This document shows positions 4,254 to 21,986 of a DNA stretch of 45,090 bases, piece after piece. A model generated the notes under the pieces. The model was given only the letters and a program-made list of their open reading frames with translations, was not told the DNA's origin and ran no database searches. Numbering within the stretch: the stretch's first letter is position 1; every line of letters begins with the position of its first letter. The translations under genes and the position numbers were made by a program. The stretch is from Myxococcales bacterium (GTDB lineage: Bacteria; Myxococcota_A; Polyangia; Haliangiales; Haliangiaceae), in contig JAEUJY010000077.1 in NCBI GenBank assembly GCA_016794525.1, forward strand, positions 1-45,090, in the 5' to 3' direction.

Positions 4254-4847
4254 CTACTTCTTCATCACGAGCACCGTCAGCACGCCCTGCAGCTGCGGCG
4301 CGGTGGCGCTCGAGACGTTGGCGGCGGTGGCGTTCGGGTCGACGGCGATGGCCTTGACCTCGACGGTGTGGTTGCCGGGCGTCAGGTTGTACGAGCGGGC
4401 CATCGACCAGTTGGCGATCATCTGGCCGACCGCCGCCGAGTTGGCGGCGACCACCCGGCGCACGCCGCCCTGGTTGGACGCGATGCCGTCGACGAAGATC
4501 GCGATGTCGACGGCCGAGTAGGCGGTGCCGGCGGCGGTGCACTGGATGCCGCCGTTGGTGCTGACGTGGACCGCGGCGTCGTCGGGCACGGTGATCACCT
4601 GCTGCAGGCCGGGGATCAGCACGTAGCTGGTGATCGCCGACGTCACCGTGAGCTGGCCGGTGCCGTAGATCTCGTAGAGGTTCTGGCCGGTGGTGCCGGC
4701 GGGGCCCGCCGGCCCGGTCGCGCCGATGTTGCCGGTGGCGCCGGTCTGGCCCGGGGGACCCTCGGGGCCGGGCTCGCCGTCGAGACCCGCCGGCCCCGAG
4801 CAAGCGACCGCGAGCAGGAGCGTACCGATCGGCCAGAGCGTGCGCAT
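4254..4847 (-). CDS. Collagen-like triple-helix repeat lipoprotein with a C-terminal globular (BclA/C1q-like) domain
   Basis: Start MRTLWPIGTLLLAVACS (lipobox) at 4845..4847. Thirteen consecutive G-X-Y triplets (GPAGLDGEPGPEGPPGQTGATGNIGATGPAGPAGTTGQN) are followed by a roughly 140-aa beta-rich domain. Convergent with the SBP gene, with stop codons 6 bp apart. Confidence 0.7.
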   Translation of the reverse strand: MRTLWPIGTLLLAVACSGPAGLDGEPGPEGPPGQTGATGNIGATGPAGPAGTTGQNLYEIYGTGQLTVTSAITSYVLIPGLQQVITVPDDAAVHVSTNGGIQCTAAGTAYSAVDIAIFVDGIASNQGGVRRVVAANSAAVGQMIANWSMARSYNLTPGNHTVEVKAIAVDPNATAANVSSATAPQLQGVLTVLVMKK

Positions 4848-4893
4848 CGCGCCGACGCTATCAGAGCGCTCGCCGGCTGTGTCAGCATGCGGC

Positions 4894-6000
4894 ATGCGTC
4901 GCTTCGCCGTCGTCGCTCTCGCCGCGCTCGCGTGCTCGAAGTCCTCGGCCCCGCCGCCGGCGGCGGCCCCGCCGCCGGCCACGCCGCCGACCCCGGTCCC
5001 CGCCGCGCCGGCGAGCTGCCTGCGCGACGTCGGCCAGGTCCAGGCCGCGCGCGGCGCGCCGAGCCAGCCGATGCGGCCGACCCACACCTTCTCGATCGTC
5101 GCGCGCGATCCGGTCACCGGCGATCTCGGCGTCGCGGTGCAGTCGCACTGGTTCGCGGTGGGTGCGCTCGTGACCTGGGCCGAGCCCGGCGTCGGCGCGA
5201 TCGCGACGCAGTCGTTCGCCGAGCCGGCCTACGGGCGCAAGGGCCTCGAGCGGATGCGCGCCGGCGCCAGCGCCCCCGACGCGCTGGCCGCGATCCTGGC
5301 CGAGGACGCCAAGCGCGACGTGCGGCAGGTGGCGTTCGTCGACGGCAAGGGCCAGGTCGCGGCCCACACCGGCGCCGCGAACATCGCGTTCGCCGGGCAC
5401 CACACCGGCGCCGGCTACTCGGTGCAGGCCAACATGATGGCCAACGATCGCGTCGTGCCGGCGATGCAGGCCGCCTACGAGGGCGCCACCGGGGACCTCG
5501 CCGAGCGCCTGCTGGCCACGCTGGCGGCGGCGCAGGCGGCGGGCGGCGACGTCCGCGGCTGCCAGTCGGCGGCCATGCTGATCGTCAAGGGCACGCCCTC
5601 GGCCGAGCCGTCCCACGACACGCTCGTCGACCTGCGCGTCGACGACGCCGCCGATCCGATCGGCGAGCTGGGCCGGCTGCTCAAGCTGCAGCGGGTCTAC
5701 GATCACATGAACGCTGGCGACGCCGCGGTCGAGCGCGGCGACGTCCCCGGCGCCAAGCAGCACTACGGCGCCGCGGCGGCCGCCGCCCCCGACCTGACCG
5801 AGGTCCGCTACTGGAGCGCGGTCGCGCTGGCCTCGGCCGGCGAGCTCGACGCCGCGCTGCCAATGTTCACCAAGATCTTCGCCGAGGACAGCCGGTGGAT
5901 CGAGCTGACCCGCCGCATCCAGCCGGCGGTGGTGCCCGCCACCCCCGAGGGCGACGCGGTGATCCAGAAGATCCTGACCGCCGCGCCGCCGCCGCGCTGA
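4894..6000 (+). CDS. DUF1028 family (Ntn-hydrolase-like) lipoprotein with a C-terminal helical extension
   Basis: Start MRRFAVVALAALACS. The mature part contains THTFSIVARDPVTGDLGVAVQS, matching the TFSI-ARD N-terminal nucleophile signature I associate with DUF1028. Divergent from the collagen-like gene with a 46-bp gap. Confidence 0.7.
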   Translation: MRRFAVVALAALACSKSSAPPPAAAPPPATPPTPVPAAPASCLRDVGQVQAARGAPSQPMRPTHTFSIVARDPVTGDLGVAVQSHWFAVGALVTWAEPGVGAIATQSFAEPAYGRKGLERMRAGASAPDALAAILAEDAKRDVRQVAFVDGKGQVAAHTGAANIAFAGHHTGAGYSVQANMMANDRVVPAMQAAYEGATGDLAERLLATLAAAQAAGGDVRGCQSAAMLIVKGTPSAEPSHDTLVDLRVDDAADPIGELGRLLKLQRVYDHMNAGDAAVERGDVPGAKQHYGAAAAAAPDLTEVRYWSAVALASAGELDAALPMFTKIFAEDSRWIELTRRIQPAVVPATPEGDAVIQKILTAAPPPR

Positions 6001-6030
6001 TCACGCCGGCGGGGTGATACGCTCACGGCG

Positions 6031-6621
6031 ATGGATCAGGATCGCGAGCTGCTCGAGCGGTGGCGCGCAGGCGACCAGGCCGCCGGCCGCGATCTGTTCG
6101 CGCGCTACTTCGATCCGCTGTTCCGGTTCTTCGCCAACAAGTGCAACGAGCCCGACGAGCTGGTCCAGGCGACGTTCTTCGCGCTGGTGAAGGCCCGCGA
6201 TCAGTTCGCCGGCCGCTCGAGCTTCCGCACCTACCTGTTCACGATCGCGCGCAACGAGCTGTACCGCTGGCTGCGCACGTTCAAGCGCGAGCGCGGCTTC
6301 GACCCCGAGCTGTCGTCGATCGCCGAGGTCGCGACCACCGCCGGCTCGCGGCTGGCCCGCAACGAGGAGCACCGCCGGCTGTGCGCCGCGCTGCGCACGC
6401 TGCCGGTCGAGTCGCAGACCCTGCTCGAGCTGCACTACTGGGAGGGCCTCGACGCCACCGCGCTGGCCGAGGTCTTCGACGCCCAGGTCGCCACCATCCG
6501 CCAGCGCCTCTCGCGCGCCCGCCTCGCCCTCAAGGACGCCCTGGCCGCCAGCGCCGGCGCCCCGCTGCCCCTGGCCACGGTCGAGGACATGGACACCTGG
6601 GCGAAGTCGCTGGCGGGATAG
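6031..6621 (+). CDS. ECF (sigma-70 family group IV) RNA polymerase sigma factor
   Basis: Region 2-like FFALVKARDQFAGRSSFRTYLFTIARNELYRWLR and region 4-like LPVESQTLLELHYWEGLDATALAEVFDAQVATIRQRLSRARLAL. No anti-sigma gene follows it. Confidence 0.85.
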   Translation: MDQDRELLERWRAGDQAAGRDLFARYFDPLFRFFANKCNEPDELVQATFFALVKARDQFAGRSSFRTYLFTIARNELYRWLRTFKRERGFDPELSSIAEVATTAGSRLARNEEHRRLCAALRTLPVESQTLLELHYWEGLDATALAEVFDAQVATIRQRLSRARLALKDALAASAGAPLPLATVEDMDTWAKSLAG

Positions 6622-7839: not shown

Positions 7840-8889
7840 ATGACGCGACACATCATGGCGCTGGCGGCGGCGCTGGCGGCGGGCTGAACTGGCGAACTGG
7901 CGACCGGAAGCGGCGAGAGCCTGGTCATCAACGGTGATGGCGAGGCCTGCCCGAAGCTCGGCTGCAGCTCCAACTCGGCGTACCTGGGCCCGACCGAGTT
8001 CCACGAGCTCGAGGAGACCGGCACGTACCCCAACGCCGAAGGCCTGTACCTCAAGGGCCTGGTCAAGAACGGCTTGACCTATCGCCCCAACGTCACGGGG
8101 ACGGAGTTGACCGCCTCGCGCTGGGCGTTGGTCGGTGGCTTCTGGATCTACCAGACACTCAGCGGGGCGAACCTGGTCAACTCCGAGCTGGTGGTCAAGA
8201 ACGCCACCGGCTCGCTCGAGTACCGCATCCGCATCGCGAACGCGTCGACGATCCAGAAGTTCTGGCAGGCCCCGATCACCACGGTGAACACCTACGAGCT
8301 CCAGTGGCGCCTGGCCACCTCCACCTACTACACCCCGGTGTGCAAGAACCCGCCGAACCGCCTGGATGACACCGGCAACTGGAACAACATCCTCGAGGCG
8401 ATCCTCTTCACCGGCGATCGCTACGACACCGACACCCTGACAGTCACCGCGTCGACGCCGGCGGAGGCGACGACCTGGTTCAACATCGGCTGCGCCGGGA
8501 CGGTCCTGGCGAAGCTCGCCCTCAACCGGCACACCGACGCGACGAAGTCGGCGCAGGTCACCACCACGCGGGACCAGCGGCAGGCGATGCTGAAGATGTA
8601 CACGTCGGACGTGTGCAACAGCGGCGACGCGTTGACCGTGACCGGCACGCCGTTGCGCTGGTGGAGCGCCACCGGCCTCACCAGCAAGGCGATCGCGGTC
8701 TACTCCAACGAGGCGCGGTGGACCGCCGATGGCGCGCTGTGTCTGGACACGCACCGGCTCGATGGGACCCCGGATGACAGGACCGCGCAGATCGCGGACG
8801 CCTGCCAGCGCGCCAACCGACCGGTGCCCCCGCCCTGTGCCGACGTCACGACCAGCTGGGACTTCCGCACCGAGAGCCAGGCGCACTAA
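7840..8889 (+). pseudogene. Lipoprotein paralog B with an in-frame TGA (7885..7887) exactly at the lipobox Cys codon
   Basis: A single reading frame gives MTRHIMALAAALAAG, then TGA, then TGELATGSGESLVINGDGEACPKLGCSSNS and the rest through 8889. Paralog C has Cys at the same position (LAAVGC). Downstream the protein is about 90% identical to A. Confidence 0.6.
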
Positions 8890-12638: not shown

Positions 12639-14120
12639 GTGGACGAACCCGAGGTCAACTCCGTCGAAGCCGTGCCCAGTCCGATCGAGTGGGTGGGGCT
12701 GGCGCTGGGCGGCGCGCCGTTCGCGGTCAGCCATTCGGTGACCCGCATCAGCACGAGCAACGGCGCGGTGTCGGTGTACTACCGCGACTGGGTGGCGCTC
12801 GGCTGTGGCGTCGCGGCGGCGGTGATCGGAGTGCACGCGTTGATCCGGCTGCGCTCGACGGCGCCGGCGCGGCGGACGCTGCGCGTGCTGGTGGCGCTGG
12901 CGCTGCTGGTGGCGGGCGTCGTGCAGGTGCTGCGCGGCGTCGGGACCATCGACGGTCCGAAGGCGGAGGCGCCGGCGATCACGACCGGCCCCGCGACCCC
13001 GCCGCCCGCGGCGGTCGACCCGGCGGTGGCGTGCGACGGCGGCGACAGCGAGGCGTGCAACCGCGCCGGCATGGCGGCGATCGCCGCCGAGCAGTGGACG
13101 ATCGCGCGCCAGCGCTTCGAGACCGGCTGCGGGCGCAAACACGGCGAGAGCTGCAAGAACCTCGGCGTCATGTACGACCACGGCGACGGCGTCGAGCGCA
13201 ACCAGGTCAAGGCGGTCGGCTACTACGGCCAGGCCTGCGACGCCGGCAACGCGGTCGGCTGCTTCAACCTCGGCATGGCCCGCTACCAGGGCGCCGGCGT
13301 CGATCGCGACGTGCCCGGCGCGGCCGGCATGTTCAAGCGCGCGTGCGAGGCCGACAGCGCGGCGGCGTGCAACCAGCTGGCGATCATGCTGGGCGACGGC
13401 GTCGGCGTGCGCGAGGACGACGCGGCGGCGTTCGCGCTGTTCACCAAGGCGTGCGACGCCAAGCTGGCGGTCGCGTGCCGCAACGCCGGGCTCAAGCTCG
13501 ACGACGGCGACGGCGTGGCCAAGGATCCGGCCAAGGCGGTGGCGCGGTTCGTCGAGGCGTGCGACGGCGGCGACGGCGCCGGCTGCTCCGACGCCGGCGC
13601 GCGCTACCAGGCCGGCCGCGGCGTGACCGCCGATCCCGCGCAGGCCCGCACGTACTACGAGCGCGCGTGCCGCCTGAACTACGGCGACGGCTGCAACCGG
13701 CTGGGCCGCCTCGCCGAGGACGGCGTCGGCGAGCCCAAGGATCTCGCCAAGGCCGCCGCGCTGTACGAGCAGGGCTGCGCGCTGGGCGCCGGCTACGGCT
13801 GCTCGAACCTGGCGTTCCTCAAGGGCGGCATCACCAAGCAGCTGCCGCTGTACCAGCGCGCGTGCGAGCTGGGCGCCGCCGGCGTCTGCGTCGACCTCGG
13901 CATGGAGCTGTACACCGGCAAGCACCTGAAGAAGGACGTCGCGGCGGCGCTGCCGCTGTTCGAGCGCGGCTGCGCGCTCGGCGACGAGGTCGGGTGCCGC
14001 AACGCCGGCATCCAGTACTTCCGCGGCGAGGGCACCAAGGCCGATCGCGTGAAGTCGCACGACCTGCTGGTGCGGGCGTGTCAGCTCGGCGACGCCGCGT
14101 CGTGCAAGGAGCTCGAGTAG
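12639..14120 (+). CDS. Sel1-like repeat (SLR) protein with N-terminal TM helices
   Basis: About ten tandem units of roughly 36 aa, of the form C..G....C..LG..Y..G.GV..D...A...Y..AC (for example CKNLGVMYDHGDGVERNQVKAVGYYGQAC). This is the typical Sel1/HcpA-type repeat pattern. Confidence 0.8.
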   Translation: MDEPEVNSVEAVPSPIEWVGLALGGAPFAVSHSVTRISTSNGAVSVYYRDWVALGCGVAAAVIGVHALIRLRSTAPARRTLRVLVALALLVAGVVQVLRGVGTIDGPKAEAPAITTGPATPPPAAVDPAVACDGGDSEACNRAGMAAIAAEQWTIARQRFETGCGRKHGESCKNLGVMYDHGDGVERNQVKAVGYYGQACDAGNAVGCFNLGMARYQGAGVDRDVPGAAGMFKRACEADSAAACNQLAIMLGDGVGVREDDAAAFALFTKACDAKLAVACRNAGLKLDDGDGVAKDPAKAVARFVEACDGGDGAGCSDAGARYQAGRGVTADPAQARTYYERACRLNYGDGCNRLGRLAEDGVGEPKDLAKAAALYEQGCALGAGYGCSNLAFLKGGITKQLPLYQRACELGAAGVCVDLGMELYTGKHLKKDVAAALPLFERGCALGDEVGCRNAGIQYFRGEGTKADRVKSHDLLVRACQLGDAASCKELE

Positions 14121-14124
14121 CCCG

Positions 14125-15498
14125 TCACTTCGGGGTCAGCACCAGCCCGAGCTTGACGTCGACGTCGGTCGGGTCGCCGTCGCCGTCGATGACCGGCGTG
14201 AACTGCCACTTGGCCATCACGCCCTCGATGCACGACGCCAGGGTGTCGTCCACGCCGGCGGCGTTGCCGTCGGTGAGCGCGCCGCGATCGGTGACGGTGA
14301 AGGTCAGCGAGACCTTGCCGGCCAGCGTGCCGTCGCTCACCAGCGACTTCTTGTAGCAGCGCTGCAGGCTGGGCATGTAGGTCGTCGAGATCTTCCGGAT
14401 GATGCCGTCCACCGACGGATCGCCGGGCGGGCGCGGGGTGACCACCGGCTTGATGCGGCCGGGCGGGCCGGGCTCGGGGCCCTTGACGATCGGCGTGACG
14501 GGGCGGTTGGTGTCGGGATCGATCACCGGGTTCTGGCTGGTGCCGGGGCGGTAGGCGTCGTCGGGGCGCACGCGGCCGGTCTGATCGCCGATGCTGGCGG
14601 TCTGGTCGTTGCGCTTGATCTCGTCGAGCTGCTGCGCGAGGTCGGTGCCCGGCTTCTTGGCCGACAGATCGCCGACCGTGCGGCCGCTGTCGCCGTCGGG
14701 GGCGAACAGCAGATCGGCCATGCGGGTCGGATCGCCGGGCTCGGTCGTCGCGGGCGTCGTCGTCGGCGCCGCCGGGCGGCTGGTGCTCGGCGTCGGCTTG
14801 TGGCTCGGCGCGGGCGCGGTCGGCTCGGGCTTGCTCGGCGCCGGCTGGGTGCCGGGCTCGGGCTCGGGCGCCGGATCGGTGTCGAAGATCGGATCGCTGG
14901 CGTCGATGAGCGCGATCGTGTCGTCGGTGTAGGTCTCGGTCGCGCGGTGCGCCATCGTCGGCTTGCCGGGCGGATCGTTGAGGTTGGCGGCGATCATCAC
15001 GCCGAGGTGCGCCACCAGCGACGCGGCGGCGAACGCGGCGACGCGGCCGTCGATGCGATCGGCCAGCGTGCCCTTGAGCGCGCGCGGCAACGTGGGCGCC
15101 GGCGCGGGCGCGGGCAGGCGCACGCCCTGGAACAGCACGCGCACCTCGCCGACGTCGACGCGGCCGTGGGCGGTCAGCGGCAGCACGACCGTGGTCGCGC
15201 CCGCGGCCACCTTGCCGTGGGCGTCGCACTCGGCGCGGGTCCACACCGCGTCGCCCACCGCGATCCGCACGTCCATGCCCGCGGCCAGCCGCAGGCGGAT
15301 GCCGGCGGCCGTGATCGTCAACAGCTCCCAGTTGCGCGGCAAGGTCGGCAGCGGCAGCTGGATGCTGGCGCGGGCCGACTGGCCGATCGAGAAGGGCCGC
15401 TGGCCGCGCACGATCTGCTCGGCGACCACGGTCCCCGACAGCACGATGCCGAGGCGAAGAGCGGGAGGATTCGCAGGCTTGGCAGGAGTCGCGGACAT
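14125..15498 (-). CDS. AgmX/PglI-like membrane protein: N-terminal cytoplasmic domain, one TM helix, Pro/Thr-rich linker, C-terminal TonB-C-like domain
   Basis: TM helix AAFAAASLVAHLGVMIAA. Long linker PAPEPEPGTQPAPSKPEPTAPAPSHKPTPSTS. The C-terminal roughly 90 aa (IIRKISTTYMPSLQRCYKK...WQFTPV) is typical of TonB/AgmX-PglI C-terminal domains. Family assignment is from memory. Confidence 0.6.
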   Translation of the reverse strand: MSATPAKPANPPALRLGIVLSGTVVAEQIVRGQRPFSIGQSARASIQLPLPTLPRNWELLTITAAGIRLRLAAGMDVRIAVGDAVWTRAECDAHGKVAAGATTVVLPLTAHGRVDVGEVRVLFQGVRLPAPAPAPTLPRALKGTLADRIDGRVAAFAAASLVAHLGVMIAANLNDPPGKPTMAHRATETYTDDTIALIDASDPIFDTDPAPEPEPGTQPAPSKPEPTAPAPSHKPTPSTSRPAAPTTTPATTEPGDPTRMADLLFAPDGDSGRTVGDLSAKKPGTDLAQQLDEIKRNDQTASIGDQTGRVRPDDAYRPGTSQNPVIDPDTNRPVTPIVKGPEPGPPGRIKPVVTPRPPGDPSVDGIIRKISTTYMPSLQRCYKKSLVSDGTLAGKVSLTFTVTDRGALTDGNAAGVDDTLASCIEGVMAKWQFTPVIDGDGDPTDVDVKLGLVLTPK

Positions 15499-15561
15499 GG
15501 GAATGCAAACGCGCGACCGGCCGGGGCGATCTAGCCGAGCGCCAGCGAGGCTCCCAGCCGG

Positions 15562-16653
15562 TCAGCGCACGACGGTCAGGTGCACTCGCCCCGGCGTCGA
15601 CGGTGGCGGCGGCAGCGCGGGCGCGAGCGGCTGGCCGCGCCAGGCGTCGAGCCGGCTGCCCTGGTGGGCGTAGGCGACCGGGCAGGTGGCGGCGCACGGC
15701 TTGGGGGTGTCGAACGCCTGGCGGATGTCGTCGACGCCGTAGTCGGCCAGCGGCTTGGCGCCCAGGCCCATCTTGGGCGTGCACAGGTGCACCAGCCCGT
15801 CCTCGCACACGGTGAAGAAGCGCGCGCCGGCGCGGCACTTCCACTCGACCTGGCCGCGGTCGAGCAGGTCGCTCTGGAAGTCCTCGCTGAACACGCTGGT
15901 GCCGTGGCGATCGAGCGCGCGGATCTGCTCGTAGACCTCGCGGGCCGCGGCGTCGACCGGCAGCGGCCGCCCCGAGGGATCGCGGGCCAGCGAGCACTTC
16001 GCGTCGAAGCCGAGCGCGTGCACCGCCTGCGCCACCGCCAGCGCCTCGGCCGGCGGCGCCGCGCCGAAGACGGTGTTCACGCGCACGCGGAAGCGCGCGT
16101 GCTCGGCGAGCAGCCGCAGCTTGCCGCGCAGGGGCTTCCACGACTTCTTGCTGACGTCGTTGGGCGTGAGGTTGTCGAGGCTGAGCTGCAGCGCGTACAG
16201 CCCGGCGTCGTTGAGCTCGTCGATCAGCGCGCGCGTCAGCAGGTAGCCGTTGGTGTTGAGCGCCGGCGTCATGCCGCGCGCGTGCACGTGGCGGACGATC
16301 GCGACGATGTCGGGGTGGAGCAGCGTCTCGCCGCCGGTGAGCGTGACGAACACCGTGCCCAGCGCGGCGAGGCGATCGATGCGCACCTTCATCGCGTCGA
16401 GCGGCACCGGCGGCGACACCTTGTCGTACTCGGTGCAGTAGCCGCACGCGAGGTTGCAGCGGCGGGTGACGACGACGTGCGCCATCAGCGGCCGATCGGT
16501 GTCGAGCGCGGCCTTGGCCAGCCCGCGCAGGACGCGGAAGTCGGCGCGCAGCTGGTGGCGGCGCTGGTGGCGAGGCTGGCGGGCGGGGTCGATCGCGGGG
16601 AGGGCGGCTGCGGACATGGCGGGCGGTATTGCGACCCCCGGGCCATCGTCCAA
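15562..16653 (-). CDS. Radical SAM domain protein
   Basis: CNLACGYC (the CxxxCxxC 4Fe-4S/SAM motif) lies near the N-terminus. GGETLL and NTNG blocks follow. There are additional C-terminal Cys residues (CTPK...CAATCPVAY). The start is ambiguous between 16653, 16617 and 16485. Confidence 0.75.
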   Translation of the reverse strand: MDDGPGVAIPPAMSAAALPAIDPARQPRHQRRHQLRADFRVLRGLAKAALDTDRPLMAHVVVTRRCNLACGYCTEYDKVSPPVPLDAMKVRIDRLAALGTVFVTLTGGETLLHPDIVAIVRHVHARGMTPALNTNGYLLTRALIDELNDAGLYALQLSLDNLTPNDVSKKSWKPLRGKLRLLAEHARFRVRVNTVFGAAPPAEALAVAQAVHALGFDAKCSLARDPSGRPLPVDAAAREVYEQIRALDRHGTSVFSEDFQSDLLDRGQVEWKCRAGARFFTVCEDGLVHLCTPKMGLGAKPLADYGVDDIRQAFDTPKPCAATCPVAYAHQGSRLDAWRGQPLAPALPPPPSTPGRVHLTVVR

Positions 16654-16740: not shown

Positions 16741-17214
16741 ATGCTCCGCCGCGTCTTGCCCCTCGCGCTGTTGATCGGATGTAGCCATCCGCGGCCCGCG
16801 CCCGCGCCACCGCCGCCGCCCGCGAGCCCGCAGGTCACGATCCACGTCGACGCGCTCGGCTTCAGGGCCGACGCGACGTTGACGATCGAGCTGGTGATCG
16901 ACAGCGGATACGGCTGCAGCAAGCACTACCCGATCGCGATGCCACCGCTCGAGCCGACGCCGTCGCCCGCGCCGTGTCCGGCGCCGCCGCCCGACATCCA
17001 CGAGCAGTTCACCGAGCCGCTCGCCGGACGCGACGTCATCACGATCGGCAGCGCCGCGCTGGCGCCGGGCCGCACCTTCAGCGTGATCGTCACCGGGCCG
17101 GCGGCCACCGGCTGTGACCTGCTGCGAGGATGGGCGCGCAGCACCGTCAGCGGCGCGACGAGCGACGTCCCGCCGCTCGCGATGGTCGCGATCCCGCAGC
17201 CGTGCCCGGCGTAG
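16741..17214 (+). CDS. Small Cys-containing lipoprotein (hypothetical), first of two tandem paralogs
   Basis: Start MLRRVLPLALLIGCS. It shares architecture with the next gene (a GC...IG...G.AA.GC block). Confidence 0.6.
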   Translation: MLRRVLPLALLIGCSHPRPAPAPPPPPASPQVTIHVDALGFRADATLTIELVIDSGYGCSKHYPIAMPPLEPTPSPAPCPAPPPDIHEQFTEPLAGRDVITIGSAALAPGRTFSVIVTGPAATGCDLLRGWARSTVSGATSDVPPLAMVAIPQPCPA

Positions 17215-17747: not shown

Positions 17748-19841
17748 TCACGCCACGCGGATGCGCGCGTCGATCGCGATCACGCCCTGGCCCGGGCCGC
17801 GGGTGACGATCGGGTTGAGGTCGAGCTCGAGCACCGCGCCCAGGTCGCCCATCAGGCGATCGACGCGCAGGATCGCGTCCTGCAGCGCGGCGCGGTCGGC
17901 CACCGGGCCGCCGCGGAAGCCGTCGAGCAGCGCCTGCGCCCGCACGCCATCGACGAGATCGCGGGCGTCGGCGTCGGTCAGCGGGTGGACGCGGAAGCCG
18001 ACGTCCTTCCACAGCTCGACCGCGACGCCGCCGATGCCGAAGCCGATCAGCGGGCCGAAGCCCGGCGTGCGGGTCGCGCCGACGAACAGCTCGACGCCGC
18101 GCGGCACCATCGGCTGGACGGTGACGCCGGCCATCTCGGCGGCGCGGCCGATCGCCGCGAGCCGCGCGTGGATGTCGGCGAACGCCTGGCGCACGGCGGC
18201 GGCGTCGGCGACGTCGAGGATCACGCCGCCGACGTCGGTCTTGTGGGTGATCGTCGCCGAGGCGAGCTTGATCGCGACCGGGTAGCCGACCGCGTCCGCG
18301 GCGGCGGCGGCGGCGTCCGCCGAGGTGGCGAGCTGCGTGCTCGGCTGCGCGATGCCGTAGGCCGCGAGCACGGCGCGGGTGGCGTCGGGCGGTAGCCAGC
18401 CGTGGTGATCGCCGATCGCGGCGCGCGCGGCGGCGGCGTCGACGGCGAGCTCGGGCACCGCGCCGGCGCCGCGGGCCAGCCAGCGACCGTAGCGCACCAC
18501 GCGCGCCAGCGCGATCGCCGCAGCCTCGGGGAACGCGTACGACGGGAACCGGCCCTCGCGCAGCGACGACAGCGCCGCCGGCACGCCGTGCATGCCCATG
18601 AACGACGTCAGCACCGGCTTGGTCGCGCCGGCGCCGCCGCGCTGGATCGCCGCGGCCACCGCGGCGGCCTCGGTGCCGACCGGCGGCACGAACAGCACGA
18701 TCACCGCGTCGACGCCGGGATCGGCGAGGAGCAGCGGCAGCGCGCGCTCGTAGGCCGCGGGCGTGGCGCTGGCGATCATGTCGACCGGGTTCTTGACCGA
18801 CGCCTCGGGCGGCAAGAACTCGCGCAGCGCCGCGGTGGTCGCGGCCGACAGCTCGGGGACGATCAGGCCGTGGCTCTCGCAGGCGTCGGCGGCCATGATG
18901 CCGGGGCCGCCGGCGTTGGTGAGCAGCGCGACGCGGTTGCCATGCGGCACCGGCTGGTTGGCCAGCACCATCGCCACGTCGAACAGCTCCTCGATCGTGT
19001 CGGTGCGGATCACGCCGGCCTGGGTGATCAGCGCCTCGACCGCGACCTCGCTGCCGGCCAGCGAGCCGGTGTGCGAGCTGGCGGCGCGCGCGCCGGCGCC
19101 GGTGCGGCCGCTCTTCACCGCGACGATCGGCTTGGTGCGCGCGACGCGCTGGCAGGTCGCGAGGAAGCGGGCCGGGTTGCCGAAGCTCTCGAGGTACAGC
19201 AGCACCACCTGCACCTGCGGATCGGCGCCCCAGTACTCGATCAGGTCGTTGCCCGAGACGTCGGCCTTGTTGCCGATCGACACGAACTGGTGGATGCCGA
19301 TGCCCAGCTCCTTGGCGTAGTCGAGGATCGCCAGCCCGACCGCGCCCGACTGCGACGAGAACGCGACGTTGCCGTGGGGCGGCCAGGTCGGCGCGAAGGT
19401 GGCGTCGAGCGCGACCGCCGGGTCGGCGTTGAGCAGGCCGAGGCAGTTGGGGCCGACCATCCGCATGCCGGCGGCGCGCACCTTGGCCAGCATCGCGTCC
19501 TGGATCGCGCGGCCGGCGTCGCCGGTCTCGGCGAAGCCGGCGGTGATGATCAGCACCGCCTTGACGCCGGCGGCGACGCAGTCGTCGATCACCGCCGGCA
19601 CCCGCGCCGCGGGCACGACGATCACCGCGAGGTCGACGGCGTCGGGCACCGCGCGCAGATCCGGATACGCGCGCACGCCCTGGACCGACGTCGCGCCCGG
19701 GTTGACCGGATAGACCGCGCCGGTGAAGCCGTTGGCGATCAGGTTGTGGAAGATCTCGGCGCCGATCGTGCCGCGGGTGCGCGACGCGCCGATCACCGCG
19801 ACGGTCCGGGGCTTGAGCAGCGAGTCCAGCGAGTGCGCCAT
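17748..19841 (-). CDS. Acetate/acyl-CoA ligase (ADP-forming), fused alpha and beta domains
   Basis: N-terminal CoA-binding domain PRTVAVIGASRTRGTIGAEI. His-loop SSHTGSLAGS. C-terminal ATP-grasp region. The 697-aa length is typical of the NDP-forming acyl-CoA synthetase family. Confidence 0.9.
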   Translation of the reverse strand: MAHSLDSLLKPRTVAVIGASRTRGTIGAEIFHNLIANGFTGAVYPVNPGATSVQGVRAYPDLRAVPDAVDLAVIVVPAARVPAVIDDCVAAGVKAVLIITAGFAETGDAGRAIQDAMLAKVRAAGMRMVGPNCLGLLNADPAVALDATFAPTWPPHGNVAFSSQSGAVGLAILDYAKELGIGIHQFVSIGNKADVSGNDLIEYWGADPQVQVVLLYLESFGNPARFLATCQRVARTKPIVAVKSGRTGAGARAASSHTGSLAGSEVAVEALITQAGVIRTDTIEELFDVAMVLANQPVPHGNRVALLTNAGGPGIMAADACESHGLIVPELSAATTAALREFLPPEASVKNPVDMIASATPAAYERALPLLLADPGVDAVIVLFVPPVGTEAAAVAAAIQRGGAGATKPVLTSFMGMHGVPAALSSLREGRFPSYAFPEAAAIALARVVRYGRWLARGAGAVPELAVDAAAARAAIGDHHGWLPPDATRAVLAAYGIAQPSTQLATSADAAAAAADAVGYPVAIKLASATITHKTDVGGVILDVADAAAVRQAFADIHARLAAIGRAAEMAGVTVQPMVPRGVELFVGATRTPGFGPLIGFGIGGVAVELWKDVGFRVHPLTDADARDLVDGVRAQALLDGFRGGPVADRAALQDAILRVDRLMGDLGAVLELDLNPIVTRGPGQGVIAIDARIRVA

Positions 19842-19964
19842 CGCGTGAGCCTACGCGGGGTTGCGTCGGCGCGGGGGCGACGTGGCGGCGGCGAACGGTC
19901 GCGGCCGGCGCATAGACGGCGCGCGGCACGCAACCGCGGCGCGTCGCGGCCGATAGGCGGCGGC

Positions 19965-21986
19965 ATGAATGCACCAAGGCTCGTCGCGTTGCTCTCGGTC
20001 GGTGGCTTGCTCGTCGGGTGTGGTGGCGGTCGCCTGGCGCCGCCAGCGCGGCCCACCGCGGTCGCGAAGGTGGACCTCAAGCGGGCGAAGGCGCCGGCCA
20101 GCGCGGTGATCCTGGGCACCGGCGGCGCTGGCGACGCGACCACGCTGACCCTGCCGAGCGGGCCGCAGCGCGTGACCGTCGCGCCGCTGTTCGTGCGCGG
20201 CGAGGCGGATGATGCGGTCGGCGGGATCGGCTCGGTCGATCTGATCGTGCAGGCGGCCACCAGCGGGCAGGTGAAGGTCGGCGTGTTCGAGGACGTCGCC
20301 GGCGGCGCCGGGCCCGAGTGGCGGGCCGGCGTGTGGCTCGCGGCGTACGTCGCGGTGAGCGTGCTCGACAAGGACCTCACCGACTTCGCGTTCGAGGCCA
20401 CCTCGAGCGGCCACGTCGACGGCGCGTCGGCGTCGGCGCTGATGTCGGCGGGCCTGGTCGCGGCGATCCTCGGCTGGCCCGTCGACGCGGCGGCGACGAT
20501 GACCGGGACGATCAACCCCGACGGCACCGTCGGGCCGGTCAGCGGCATCCCGCAGAAGTTCGCGGCGGCGCTGGCCGCGGGCAAGCGCCGGCTCGGCTAC
20601 CCGGTCGGCCAGCGGCTGGCCGTCGACGCCGCCACCGGCGCCGAGGTCGACCTGGTGGCGCTGGCGCGCGAGCGCGGCGCGGAGGCGGTCGAGGTCGCCG
20701 ACATCTACGGCGCGATCGAGCTGATGACCGGGCGCGCGCTGCCGCGGCCGCAGCCGCTGGCCGGCGCGGCGATGGAGCTGCCGGCCGAGATCGCCGATCG
20801 CGTCGGCGCGCGGGTCGACGTCTGGGACAAGCGGGTCGACGCGCTGCACGAGGCGCTGGACGACGGCTACGGCCTCGGGGAGGTCGGCACCGCGGCGCTG
20901 GGCGCGTACGTGCGCTCGACCGTCGCCCACGATCGCGCCTTCAAGCAACGCAAGCAGGGGATGGTGGCCCCGGCCTACCACGGCATGGTGGCCGCGTGGA
21001 TCGCGGCGTCCGCCAGCCGCGACGCCGCGATCGTGCTCGGCCTGGCCATCGACGGCGACATCGACGGCGCGGCGCGCGAGCTCGATCGCCTGACCGCCGA
21101 GTTGACGACGTCGACGGACGCGGTGCGCGCGATCGGCACCCGCAAGCCGGCGACGATGGGCGACCACCTGCTGATGCTGTCGGCGTTCGACGCGGCGATC
21201 GACGGCTGGAGCCTGCAGGGGTTCGCCGAGGCGCTGGTCCGCCGCACCCGGCTGCGCCTCGAGGTTCTGCGCGAGGACGGCGACGACTACGCGCTCGCCG
21301 CGGTGGGCCGCGACGTCGTGGCCGCGACCACGGCGATCGCGCGGGCGCGCGCCGCGGTGCTGCTGGCGCAGGACGCGGCGGAGATCGAGGCGGCGCCGTC
21401 GGCGGTGTACCGCTGCTCGCTGCCGGCGGTGAAGCGGCTCGCGACGTCGTTCGCGGCGGCGGCGGGGTCCAACCTGGCCTACGTCGAGGCGCTGGGCGGC
21501 ATCACCTCCGACCTCGGTCGCGACCTCACCGCGACGAGCGAGCCCGACTACCTGGTCGCGGCGGTCGGCAGCCGCGTCGGGGACGCCACCGGCGTGCCGG
21601 CGACCCTCAAGGCCGCGTGGGGCGAGGACTCGGTCGGCTGGCGGCTGTTCACGCTCGCCGCGAGCCAGCAGTCGTACTTCCGCAGCTCGCTGCTCGCGTC
21701 GCGCTGGCACTCGCTGCGCGTGCGGGCCGGCCTCGACGGCCGCGCCTACGCCATCGGCAATGAGCGCGCCCTGCTCAACATGCTCGAGTTCGCCGAGCAG
21801 CGCGCGCGCGAGCACGCCCACGCGGCGCAGGTCGCGACCGGCGCGGTGCCGCTGCAGGCGCAGCTGCACTACCAGACCGCGCGCGGGCTGCGCGACGGCG
21901 ACGCGGCCGACAAGCTCGACGCGCTCGCCGCGTACTGGGCGGCCTCGGCCTACGCGCAGTCGGCGTTGATGCTGGCCCGCAACTGA
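19965..21986 (+). CDS. Lipoprotein with a Lon-protease (S16) proteolytic domain and a large C-terminal helical domain; no AAA+ module
   Basis: Start MNAPRLVALLSVGGLLVGC. HVDGASASALMSAGLVAAILG aligns with the Lon Ser motif (DGPSAG) and SGIPQKFAAALAAGKRRL with the Lys motif (GGxKEK...AG.K). The catalytic Ser and Lys appear to be retained. Confidence 0.7.
   Translation: MNAPRLVALLSVGGLLVGCGGGRLAPPARPTAVAKVDLKRAKAPASAVILGTGGAGDATTLTLPSGPQRVTVAPLFVRGEADDAVGGIGSVDLIVQAATSGQVKVGVFEDVAGGAGPEWRAGVWLAAYVAVSVLDKDLTDFAFEATSSGHVDGASASALMSAGLVAAILGWPVDAAATMTGTINPDGTVGPVSGIPQKFAAALAAGKRRLGYPVGQRLAVDAATGAEVDLVALARERGAEAVEVADIYGAIELMTGRALPRPQPLAGAAMELPAEIADRVGARVDVWDKRVDALHEALDDGYGLGEVGTAALGAYVRSTVAHDRAFKQRKQGMVAPAYHGMVAAWIAASASRDAAIVLGLAIDGDIDGAARELDRLTAELTTSTDAVRAIGTRKPATMGDHLLMLSAFDAAIDGWSLQGFAEALVRRTRLRLEVLREDGDDYALAAVGRDVVAATTAIARARAAVLLAQDAAEIEAAPSAVYRCSLPAVKRLATSFAAAAGSNLAYVEALGGITSDLGRDLTATSEPDYLVAAVGSRVGDATGVPATLKAAWGEDSVGWRLFTLAASQQSYFRSSLLASRWHSLRVRAGLDGRAYAIGNERALLNMLEFAEQRAREHAHAAQVATGAVPLQAQLHYQTARGLRDGDAADKLDALAAYWAASAYAQSALMLARN

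Follow-up and report, generated by a model that had tools for sequence, protein, structure and literature searches.

A radical S-adenosylmethionine (SAM) enzyme gene and a membrane-protein gene, hereafter the partner, lie next to each other on the minus strand of a 45,090-nucleotide stretch of DNA from a Myxococcales bacterium (contig JAEUJY010000077.1 of assembly GCA_016794525.1). This whole stretch is referred to as the window; its G+C content is about 74%. The open reading frame (ORF) of the radical SAM enzyme (15562-16653) is located upstream of that of the partner (14125-15498), and the two are separated by 63 bp, in agreement with the original prediction for this DNA, which had placed co-directional genes in this order and at this distance. 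That prediction also implied a functional pairing. Our analysis indicates that the two genes are probably separately controlled neighbours with, most likely, unrelated functions, and that their adjacency is a lineage-restricted gene order. A dedicated radical SAM/TonB-like system is unsupported, because the adjacency is lineage-restricted, the partner carries its own promoter-like element, and the radical SAM family has different partners elsewhere.

The features of the locus are collected in Table 1. The mechanically called radical SAM ORF encodes 363 aa from TTG 16653. Because the lengths and N-termini of its orthologues agree with a start at ATG 16617 (P0001 has 350 aa), the latter codon is the likely start, and residues of the enzyme are numbered from it. 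A divergent lipoprotein gene, which had no match in the Pfam scan, and a convergent Sel1-repeat gene form the borders, and the unit therefore comprises two genes at most. No peptide-sized ORF fits into the 63-bp gap or the 123-bp divergent region upstream of the radical SAM gene, which agrees with the earlier remark that no precursor-peptide-like small ORF is visible. The closest public relative is a Myxococcales metagenome-assembled genome (MAG; locus L004), in which both proteins are 94% identical to those of the window; an exact look-up of the window partner protein in public assemblies gave no record.

Table 1. Positions of the genes, protein regions and intergenic features at the locus.
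Feature	Position	Strand	Details
Radical SAM gene	15562..16617	-	351 aa from ATG 16617; PF04055, 67.4 bits; orthologue starts equivalent
CNLACGYC, CX3CX2C for the SAM-binding [4Fe-4S] cluster (C54, C58, C61)	16435..16458	-	unchanged in all 26 sequences aligned, which span many phyla
Twitch-like auxiliary-cluster region, C261-X12-G274-X4-C279 ... K306-x-C308-X3-C312	15682..15837	-	invariant cysteines and G274
Intergenic spacer, radical SAM gene to partner	15499..15561	-	63 bp
Promoter-like element GATCG-N14-GCGTT, 9 nt before the partner ATG	15508..15531	-	conserved at fixed spacing
Partner gene, TonB-like bitopic membrane protein of GltG/PglI architecture	14125..15498	-	457 aa, ATG
Cytoplasmic FHA-like beta-sandwich, residues 12-127	15118..15465	-	pLDDT above 90
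Single transmembrane helix, residues 151-174, with S160-x3-H164	14977..15048	-	helix in the model
Proline-rich disordered periplasmic linker, about residues 180-345	14464..14961	-	pLDDT below 50
C-terminal AgmX/PglI-type TonB-C-like domain, residues 364-456	14131..14409	-	C381 and C423 invariant
Divergent lipoprotein gene (MLRRVLPLALLIGC...), upstream boundary	16741..17214	+	ATG 16741
Convergent Sel1-repeat gene, downstream boundary	12639..14120	+	ends at 14120

Conservation of the gene order

Pairing was counted as adjacency at the locus. On the radical SAM side, the partner was found downstream in only one of 80 species-representative loci (L004), and radical SAM orthologues from Kofleriaceae/Haliangiales with 59-75% identity were unpaired (L001, L002, L005-L013, L090). 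On the partner side, where nine loci from gene look-up and 38 metagenome loci were sampled, 11 loci were paired and about 22 were not, so that three of at least eight lineages carry the pair. The functional pairing implied by the original prediction did not hold up in these counts.

The radical SAM gene stands directly upstream of the partner in the clade of the window (partner identity 82-100%; L004, L087, L092-L096) and in two further groups of loci from Kofleriaceae-like lineages, L089/L098 (62%) and L086 (57%). No radical SAM gene was observed upstream of the partner in L088/L091/L097 (68-70%), L084 (63%), L099/L100 (55%), L085/L101/L102/L104 (46-50%) or in about twelve loci with 30-37% identity. 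The unpaired partner loci stem from at least five lineages. Moreover, unpaired partner orthologues (63-70%) are nearer to that of the window than paired ones (57-62%), and the paired lineages are thus not the three closest.

Several of these loci showed peculiarities of their own. In L087 (4980-5954), the radical SAM gene is split into three small ORFs, and about residues 196-245 of the partner protein P0126 are out of frame; L004 is affected at position 8263-8265. Both are long-read MAG contigs, and the frame breaks are most likely assembly frameshifts rather than pseudogenes. A (CTCGGT)n repeat, about 270 bp long, is inserted between the radical SAM stop codon and the promoter-like element of the partner in L089 (5682-5955) and in L098 (upstream of position 1261). 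In L091 (2419-3654), an ISL3-family transposase gene and a DUF3800 gene are located just upstream of the partner orthologue, which is unpaired, and separate it from the PLDc_2 gene found at its flank in L088. This hints at a rearrangement mediated by an insertion sequence in the L091 lineage.

The radical SAM enzyme and its family

The upstream gene encodes a protein that belongs to the radical SAM superfamily, as had been read from its CNLACGYC motif: the Pfam core domain PF04055 was matched at 67.4 bits, against a cutoff of 29.5 bits. When 26 homologues were aligned (Myxococcota, Alphaproteobacteria, Gemmatimonadota, Cyanobacteria, Chloroflexota, Bacteroidota and others), the family appeared sharply delimited, with RRCNLxCGYCxEYD invariant. 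The extra C-terminal cysteines pointed out previously proved to be four residues that are invariant across phyla (C261, C279, C308 and C312), and C261-X12-G-X4-C279 corresponds to the CX9-15GX4C signature of Twitch and SPASM domains. Four C-terminal cysteines suffice for one auxiliary cluster, and the enzyme is predicted from its sequence to be Twitch-like. Its closest folds, SkfB and BlsE, together with the conserved cysteine pattern, identify a Twitch domain. A SPASM domain (TIGR04085/PF13186), which has seven cysteines including CX2CX5CX3C for two auxiliary clusters, was not found, as there are four conserved C-terminal cysteines and no SPASM match in Pfam.

Among the NCBIfam matches listed (25 of 55), no radical SAM equivalog cutoff was approached; the best match was MoaA, with 65.5 bits against a cutoff of 284. 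The named equivalogs considered were MoaA, PqqE, HpnH, BlsE, viperin, Tes, NirJ/Ahb, MftC and others. The matches listed covered only residues 53-247 of the 363-aa translation, mostly about 55-170, and the sequence matches in the Protein Data Bank (PDB; BlsE, PqqE, AbmM, MoaA and SkfB) also covered the core only. An AlphaFold model (predicted local distance difference test, pLDDT, 84.7) was compared with known structures using Foldseek, and the nearest were SkfB, BlsE, PqqE, AbmM, DesII and SuiB (TM-score about 0.5-0.58). A single helix precedes the barrel in the model, which contains no N-terminal domain resembling PqqD or the recognition element (RRE) of ribosomally synthesized and post-translationally modified peptides (RiPPs). 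An assignment to defence systems by PADLOC was rejected, since the matches to the pVip model were generic and confined to the core. We concluded that the enzyme is a member of an uncharacterised family and not of a standard housekeeping subfamily. The family is small: a library of 1.84 billion proteins contained 141 representatives when clustered at 50% identity, with E <= 1e-30.

The Twitch enzymes SkfB, BlsE, BtrN, DesII and AbmM, the best Foldseek matches (E 1e-12 to 1e-8, TM-score about 0.5-0.58), share with the window enzyme a partial TIM-barrel core and, beyond it, a beta-hairpin and helix at the C-terminus that carry CX9-15GX4C plus additional cysteines for one auxiliary cluster. However, the window enzyme is only 16-20% identical to them, with sequence alignment limited to the core; the second half of its cysteine set reads K-x-C-X3-C, and no curated family cutoff is reached. 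The SPASM peptide maturases PqqE, MftC, anSME and SuiB belong to the same broad clade, with weak core matches and structural similarity, but the window enzyme differs from them in having no seven-cysteine CX2CX5CX3C signature, no RRE domain and no precursor gene.

Across about 90 loci, the family has no universal neighbour and no conserved small neighbour. Certain partner families recur, however. A CDP-alcohol phosphatidyltransferase gene (CDP-OH_P_transf) is located immediately upstream on the same strand in L053 (a gammaproteobacterial MAG), L068 and L075 (Anaerolineales), adjacent or near in L027, L046 and L051 (two alphaproteobacterial, one from Chthoniobacterales), and near the radical SAM gene in L081. 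Flippase-like LPG_synthase_TM genes occur near it in 14 loci, mostly from Gemmatimonadota, where they are immediately adjacent in most cases, and also in Alphaproteobacteria and on a Haliangiales contig. VTT/DedA adjoins the radical SAM gene in L062 and L081, PAP2 in the myxobacterial L090 (radical SAM enzyme 75% identical to that of the window) and PAP2_3 in L055 (Dehalococcoidia). A YdjC deacetylase gene follows after 4 bp in L011, and glycosyltransferase genes are found near the radical SAM gene in L058 (GT4) and L090 (GT2). Fusions with GT2 (P0164, 56% identity; P0165, in L014, 53-54%), with VTT (P0175) and with a methyltransferase (P0184) were also observed. The recurrent partners are enzymes of phospholipid head groups and polyprenyl-phosphate-linked sugars, which they build, trim or translocate. 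Because of these recurrent partners and fusions, we tentatively propose, by analogy, that the family may remodel a head group (sugar, cyclitol or alcohol) carried by a membrane lipid or a lipid-linked intermediate; this role is possible, although less than an even prospect.

HpnL is an LPG_synthase_TM-like membrane protein, and HpnJ is a larger radical SAM enzyme with a B12 domain. Ring contraction of lipid-linked sugars by radical SAM enzymes is established or proposed for HpnJ and for calditol synthase, Cds (PMC13459092), and the hopanoid HpnI/HpnK/HpnJ pathway combines a radical SAM enzyme with a glycosyltransferase and a YdjC-type deacetylase (PMC12583986). The likeness of the window enzyme to HpnJ (hopanoid cyclitol ether) and to Cds, both of which act on lipid head groups, is a functional analogy only: the same partner families (glycosyltransferase, YdjC and LPG_synthase_TM) flank the radical SAM family or are fused to it, whereas HpnJ is not among the NCBIfam matches listed for the window enzyme. 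No hopanoid genes (hpn/shc) were seen in loci of the radical SAM family, and we found no described system in the literature on radical SAM enzymes with phosphatidyltransferase or PAP2.

Within the window, a DUF1028-TPR gene followed by an extracytoplasmic function (ECF) sigma factor gene (together 4678-6621, the sigma factor at 6001-6621) lies about 10 kb from the radical SAM gene, and a DUF1028 gene is located 11 bp downstream of the radical SAM orthologue in L002 (L002:9061-10128) and L003 (L003:1646-2713). This recurrence may be a coincidence.

The partner protein and its promoter-like element

The partner was described in the original prediction as a membrane protein with a proline-rich linker and a TonB-C-like domain of AgmX/PglI type, and the structural model, the domain matches and the fold all agree with this description. 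The model adds an N-terminal FHA-like beta-sandwich. Foldseek related this sandwich to FHA domains (E about 1e-3; TM-scores, normalised to the target, of 0.5-0.65), whereas Pfam gave no match to PF00498 (FHA) even at E = 10, so that the fold alone is FHA-like. As the canonical GR and SxxH positions for binding phosphothreonine read IGQS and LPRNW in the partner, the domain is probably not a phosphothreonine reader.

A conserved LADRIDxR juxtamembrane motif precedes the transmembrane helix. Within the helix, 39 partner orthologues share S160 without exception and H164 with at least 90% conservation, which, together with the proline-rich spacer, matches the SxxxH arrangement of the TonB family. 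SxxxH is the motif that couples TonB and TolA to their proton-channel motor partners, and the helix of the partner, judged by this motif, appears to resemble that motor-coupling signature. The orthologue alignment also revealed a conserved island, DATRxADLLF...DLxxQL, in the linker. The C-terminal 70 residues matched NF033768, the AgmX/PglI C-terminal domain, at 38.1 bits, just below the cutoff of 40, and the invariant C381 and C423 together with the fold of the TonB C-terminal domain (CTD) favour membership. PF03544 (TonB_C) was matched weakly (E = 0.072; 14 bits against 24.6). In the Foldseek comparison, the domain was close to the TonB CTD (6i97_D), the FusB CTD (7zc8) and 6sly, with E values from 4e-3 to 6e-2, and a PDB sequence search with the partner gave no meaningful match. 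The family is confined to Kofleriaceae-like Myxococcota and comprises 42 clusters.

GltG is described as FHA plus TonB_C (PMC3169522), and the architecture of GltJ/AgmX is related to that of the partner (PMC11135422). Like GltG (PglI, MXAN_4867) and GltJ (AgmX) of the Agl-Glt machinery of Myxococcus xanthus, the partner is bitopic and crosses the inner membrane with one transmembrane helix. Its N-terminal domain lies in the cytoplasm (in GltG this is an FHA domain), its periplasmic region is proline-rich or flexible, and its C-terminal domain is TonB-C-type and probably of the AgmX/PglI subtype. It differs from them in its length (457 aa versus 640 or 674 aa), in equivalog hidden Markov model scores far under the cutoffs, in an FHA-like domain that is undetectable by sequence and is without the canonical phosphothreonine-binding residues, and in an apparently monocistronic gene that has no glt/agl context and is preceded by a conserved promoter-like element of its own. 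With TonB and TolA it shares a membrane anchor with SxxxH, a proline-rich spacer and, at the C-terminus, an alpha/beta domain with a fold similar to the TonB CTD; however, an FHA-like cytoplasmic domain of 125 residues precedes its transmembrane helix, PF03544 reaches only E = 0.072, no exbBD/tolQR genes are nearby, and its cysteine pair is of the kind usual in the myxobacterial subtype. No gene of the ExbBD, TolQR or AglRQS type occurred among those window genes that were scanned against Pfam. We concluded that the partner is a GltG/TonB-like transducer paralogue.

A promoter-like element was found shortly upstream of the partner gene. The pattern GA(T/C)C-N-N14-(G/A)CGTT-N9-ATG is present, at essentially fixed spacing, in 33 of 37 partner loci, whether paired or unpaired, against a background of 0.0035 matches per 130-nt window. 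The carriers are the analysed stretch itself, L004, L084-L089, L091-L102, L104-L108, L110, L112, L114-L118 and L121, down to about 30% protein identity, and all orthologues, regardless of the upstream gene, conserve about 36 nt ahead of the partner ATG. The four loci without the element (L109, L111, L113 and L119) form a distant subgroup (31-33% identity) in which the partner abuts an upstream gene ending in ...KKAPF*, which suggests a different, operonic arrangement in this subgroup. No Shine-Dalgarno sequence was present in the 9 nt before the partner ATG, and the geometry of the element, ATC-N16-CGTT, resembles a -35/-10 pair of ECF type. As read from the sequence, the element has the appearance of a promoter of ECF type that would drive a leaderless or near-leaderless mRNA. 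Because the element is kept regardless of the upstream gene, the partner gene appears to bring its own regulation.

A scan for sigma-70 promoters gave no promoter-like site, and an Rfam scan of the region gave nothing at E <= 1. A sigma-54 reading of the element (GG-N10-GC) agrees with the window and L088. It was rejected because, in L084, L085, L086 and L089, conservation falls on positions other than the critical dinucleotides. An intergenic RNA hairpin (-44 kcal/mol, z = -2.3) was also rejected as a conserved element, its 5' arm being deleted in L004 and absent from unpaired loci.

Further from the two genes, two tandem ADYC-domain genes (PF20032; 7888-10070 and 10078-12606) stand beside a gene for an 842-aa Ser/Thr kinase, an arrangement that is syntenic in L087. 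Gene calls are ambiguous at 17748-21986: an acetate/acyl-CoA ligase gene on the minus strand (17748-19841), with strong Pfam matches, overlaps a 1194-aa ORF on the plus strand whose G+C content at third codon positions (GC3) is coding-like, and a 672-aa minus-strand ORF (19851-21869) had no match in Pfam. Six-frame ORF clustering of neighbours was swamped by high-GC shadow ORFs, and a GC3-filtered gene caller was used instead. This caller was imperfect; for example, it chose the 1194-aa antisense ORF over the acetyl-CoA ligase gene.

Relationship between the two genes

The two genes could form a lineage-specific operon with a real functional link, in which, for example, the transducer needs or handles an envelope lipid or glycolipid modified by the radical SAM enzyme, or both genes serve a shared envelope-stress response. 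The genes are co-directional, with no terminator in the 63-bp gap (36 bp in L086), the pair is kept in three lineages with different flanks, and both products would be envelope-related if the lipid role holds. However, the pair is broken in lineages that are intermediate by partner identity (L084; L088/L091/L097), adjacency occurs at a single one of the 80 representative radical SAM loci, the partner keeps its own promoter-like element everywhere, and the repeat of about 270 bp parts the genes in L089/L098. We therefore regard such an operon as unlikely.

An enzyme acting as a RiPP-like maturase, on the neighbouring membrane protein or on an unannotated precursor peptide, would be consistent with the presence of the RiPP maturases SkfB, PqqE and SuiB among the top structural matches and with the weak NCBIfam matches of its core to SPASM maturases. 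This proposal is very unlikely, as the intergenic regions of 63 bp and 123 bp leave no room for a precursor ORF, one helix rather than an RRE/PqqD-like domain precedes the barrel, four auxiliary cysteines are conserved instead of the seven of SPASM, and no small neighbour is conserved in about 90 loci; the recurrent partners of the enzyme are lipid and sugar enzymes, and most family members occur without the membrane protein. The original prediction had further linked the partner's C-terminal domain to gliding motility, and the pair might accordingly belong to an Agl-Glt-type gliding machine with the membrane protein as GltG or GltJ. The architecture of FHA, transmembrane helix, proline-rich region and TonB-C does match that of GltG (PMC3169522), and the C-terminal domain resembles the AgmX/PglI type. 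Nevertheless, the GltG equivalog was matched at 29.9 of the required 650 bits, by the C-terminal domain only, and GltJ at 17.6 of 450; no GltD/E/F/H/I/K- or AglRQS-like gene, nor any other glt gene, was present among the window genes scanned, and the partner gene is solitary at each orthologous locus, where its neighbours vary. The motility link was not borne out, and a gliding role for the pair is the most improbable of these proposals.

We therefore return to two separately controlled genes with probably unrelated functions. Several observations weigh against this reading. The paired lineages differ in their flanks on both sides (acetyl-CoA ligase/lipoprotein ... Sel1/kinase versus DoxX/DUF2277 ... 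outer-membrane-protein-like/HEAT/kinase), and the pair has therefore survived rearrangements. The terminator scan found none on the minus strand in the 63-bp gap, the sole terminator-like site being on the wrong strand inside the partner gene, so that read-through co-transcription from the radical SAM gene is possible. As for the lipid role, the lipid-related partner families are absent near the radical SAM gene in the window, where CdsA and UppS lie about 10 kb away, and this role is reached through guilt by association only, weighted by one phylum (Gemmatimonadota, about 11 loci).

In the model of separate genes, the upstream product would be a radical SAM enzyme of the cytoplasm that holds one SAM cluster plus a single auxiliary [4Fe-4S] cluster of Twitch type. 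Its most likely task would be to remodel the head group (a sugar, cyclitol or alcohol) of a membrane lipid or a polyprenyl-phosphate carrier. HpnJ and calditol synthase would be its functional precedents, and the sugar-modifying Twitch enzymes BlsE, DesII and BtrN its structural relatives. The downstream product would be a TonB/TolA-like transducer built like GltG/PglI, with a degenerate FHA-like domain, a transmembrane helix with SxxxH, a proline-rich span across the periplasm and a TonB-C-like domain containing a disulfide. Its gene would probably have an ECF-type promoter of its own, yielding a leaderless mRNA, and the transducer would presumably be energised by a motor of the ExbBD, TolQR or AglRQS type encoded elsewhere. 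Within this subclade, a functional link between the enzyme and the partner is rather unlikely. More specifically, an envelope lipid or glycolipid made by the radical SAM enzyme could be placed or sensed via the transducer, coupled to the proton-motive force, or the enzyme could modify the FHA-like domain of the transducer; such a module is more doubtful still. If true, either version would be a radical SAM-dependent TonB-like system without described precedent.

As a pair, the two genes are of little import, since the evidence points to incidental, lineage-restricted synteny. Each has significance of its own. The radical SAM family is compact, spans several phyla and is uncharacterised, and it yields the testable hypothesis of a new radical enzyme for the head groups of lipids or lipid-linked sugars, like HpnJ and calditol synthase. 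For the partner family, the rigid promoter-like element is a starting point from which its sigma factor, and the envelope signal to which it responds, could be sought.

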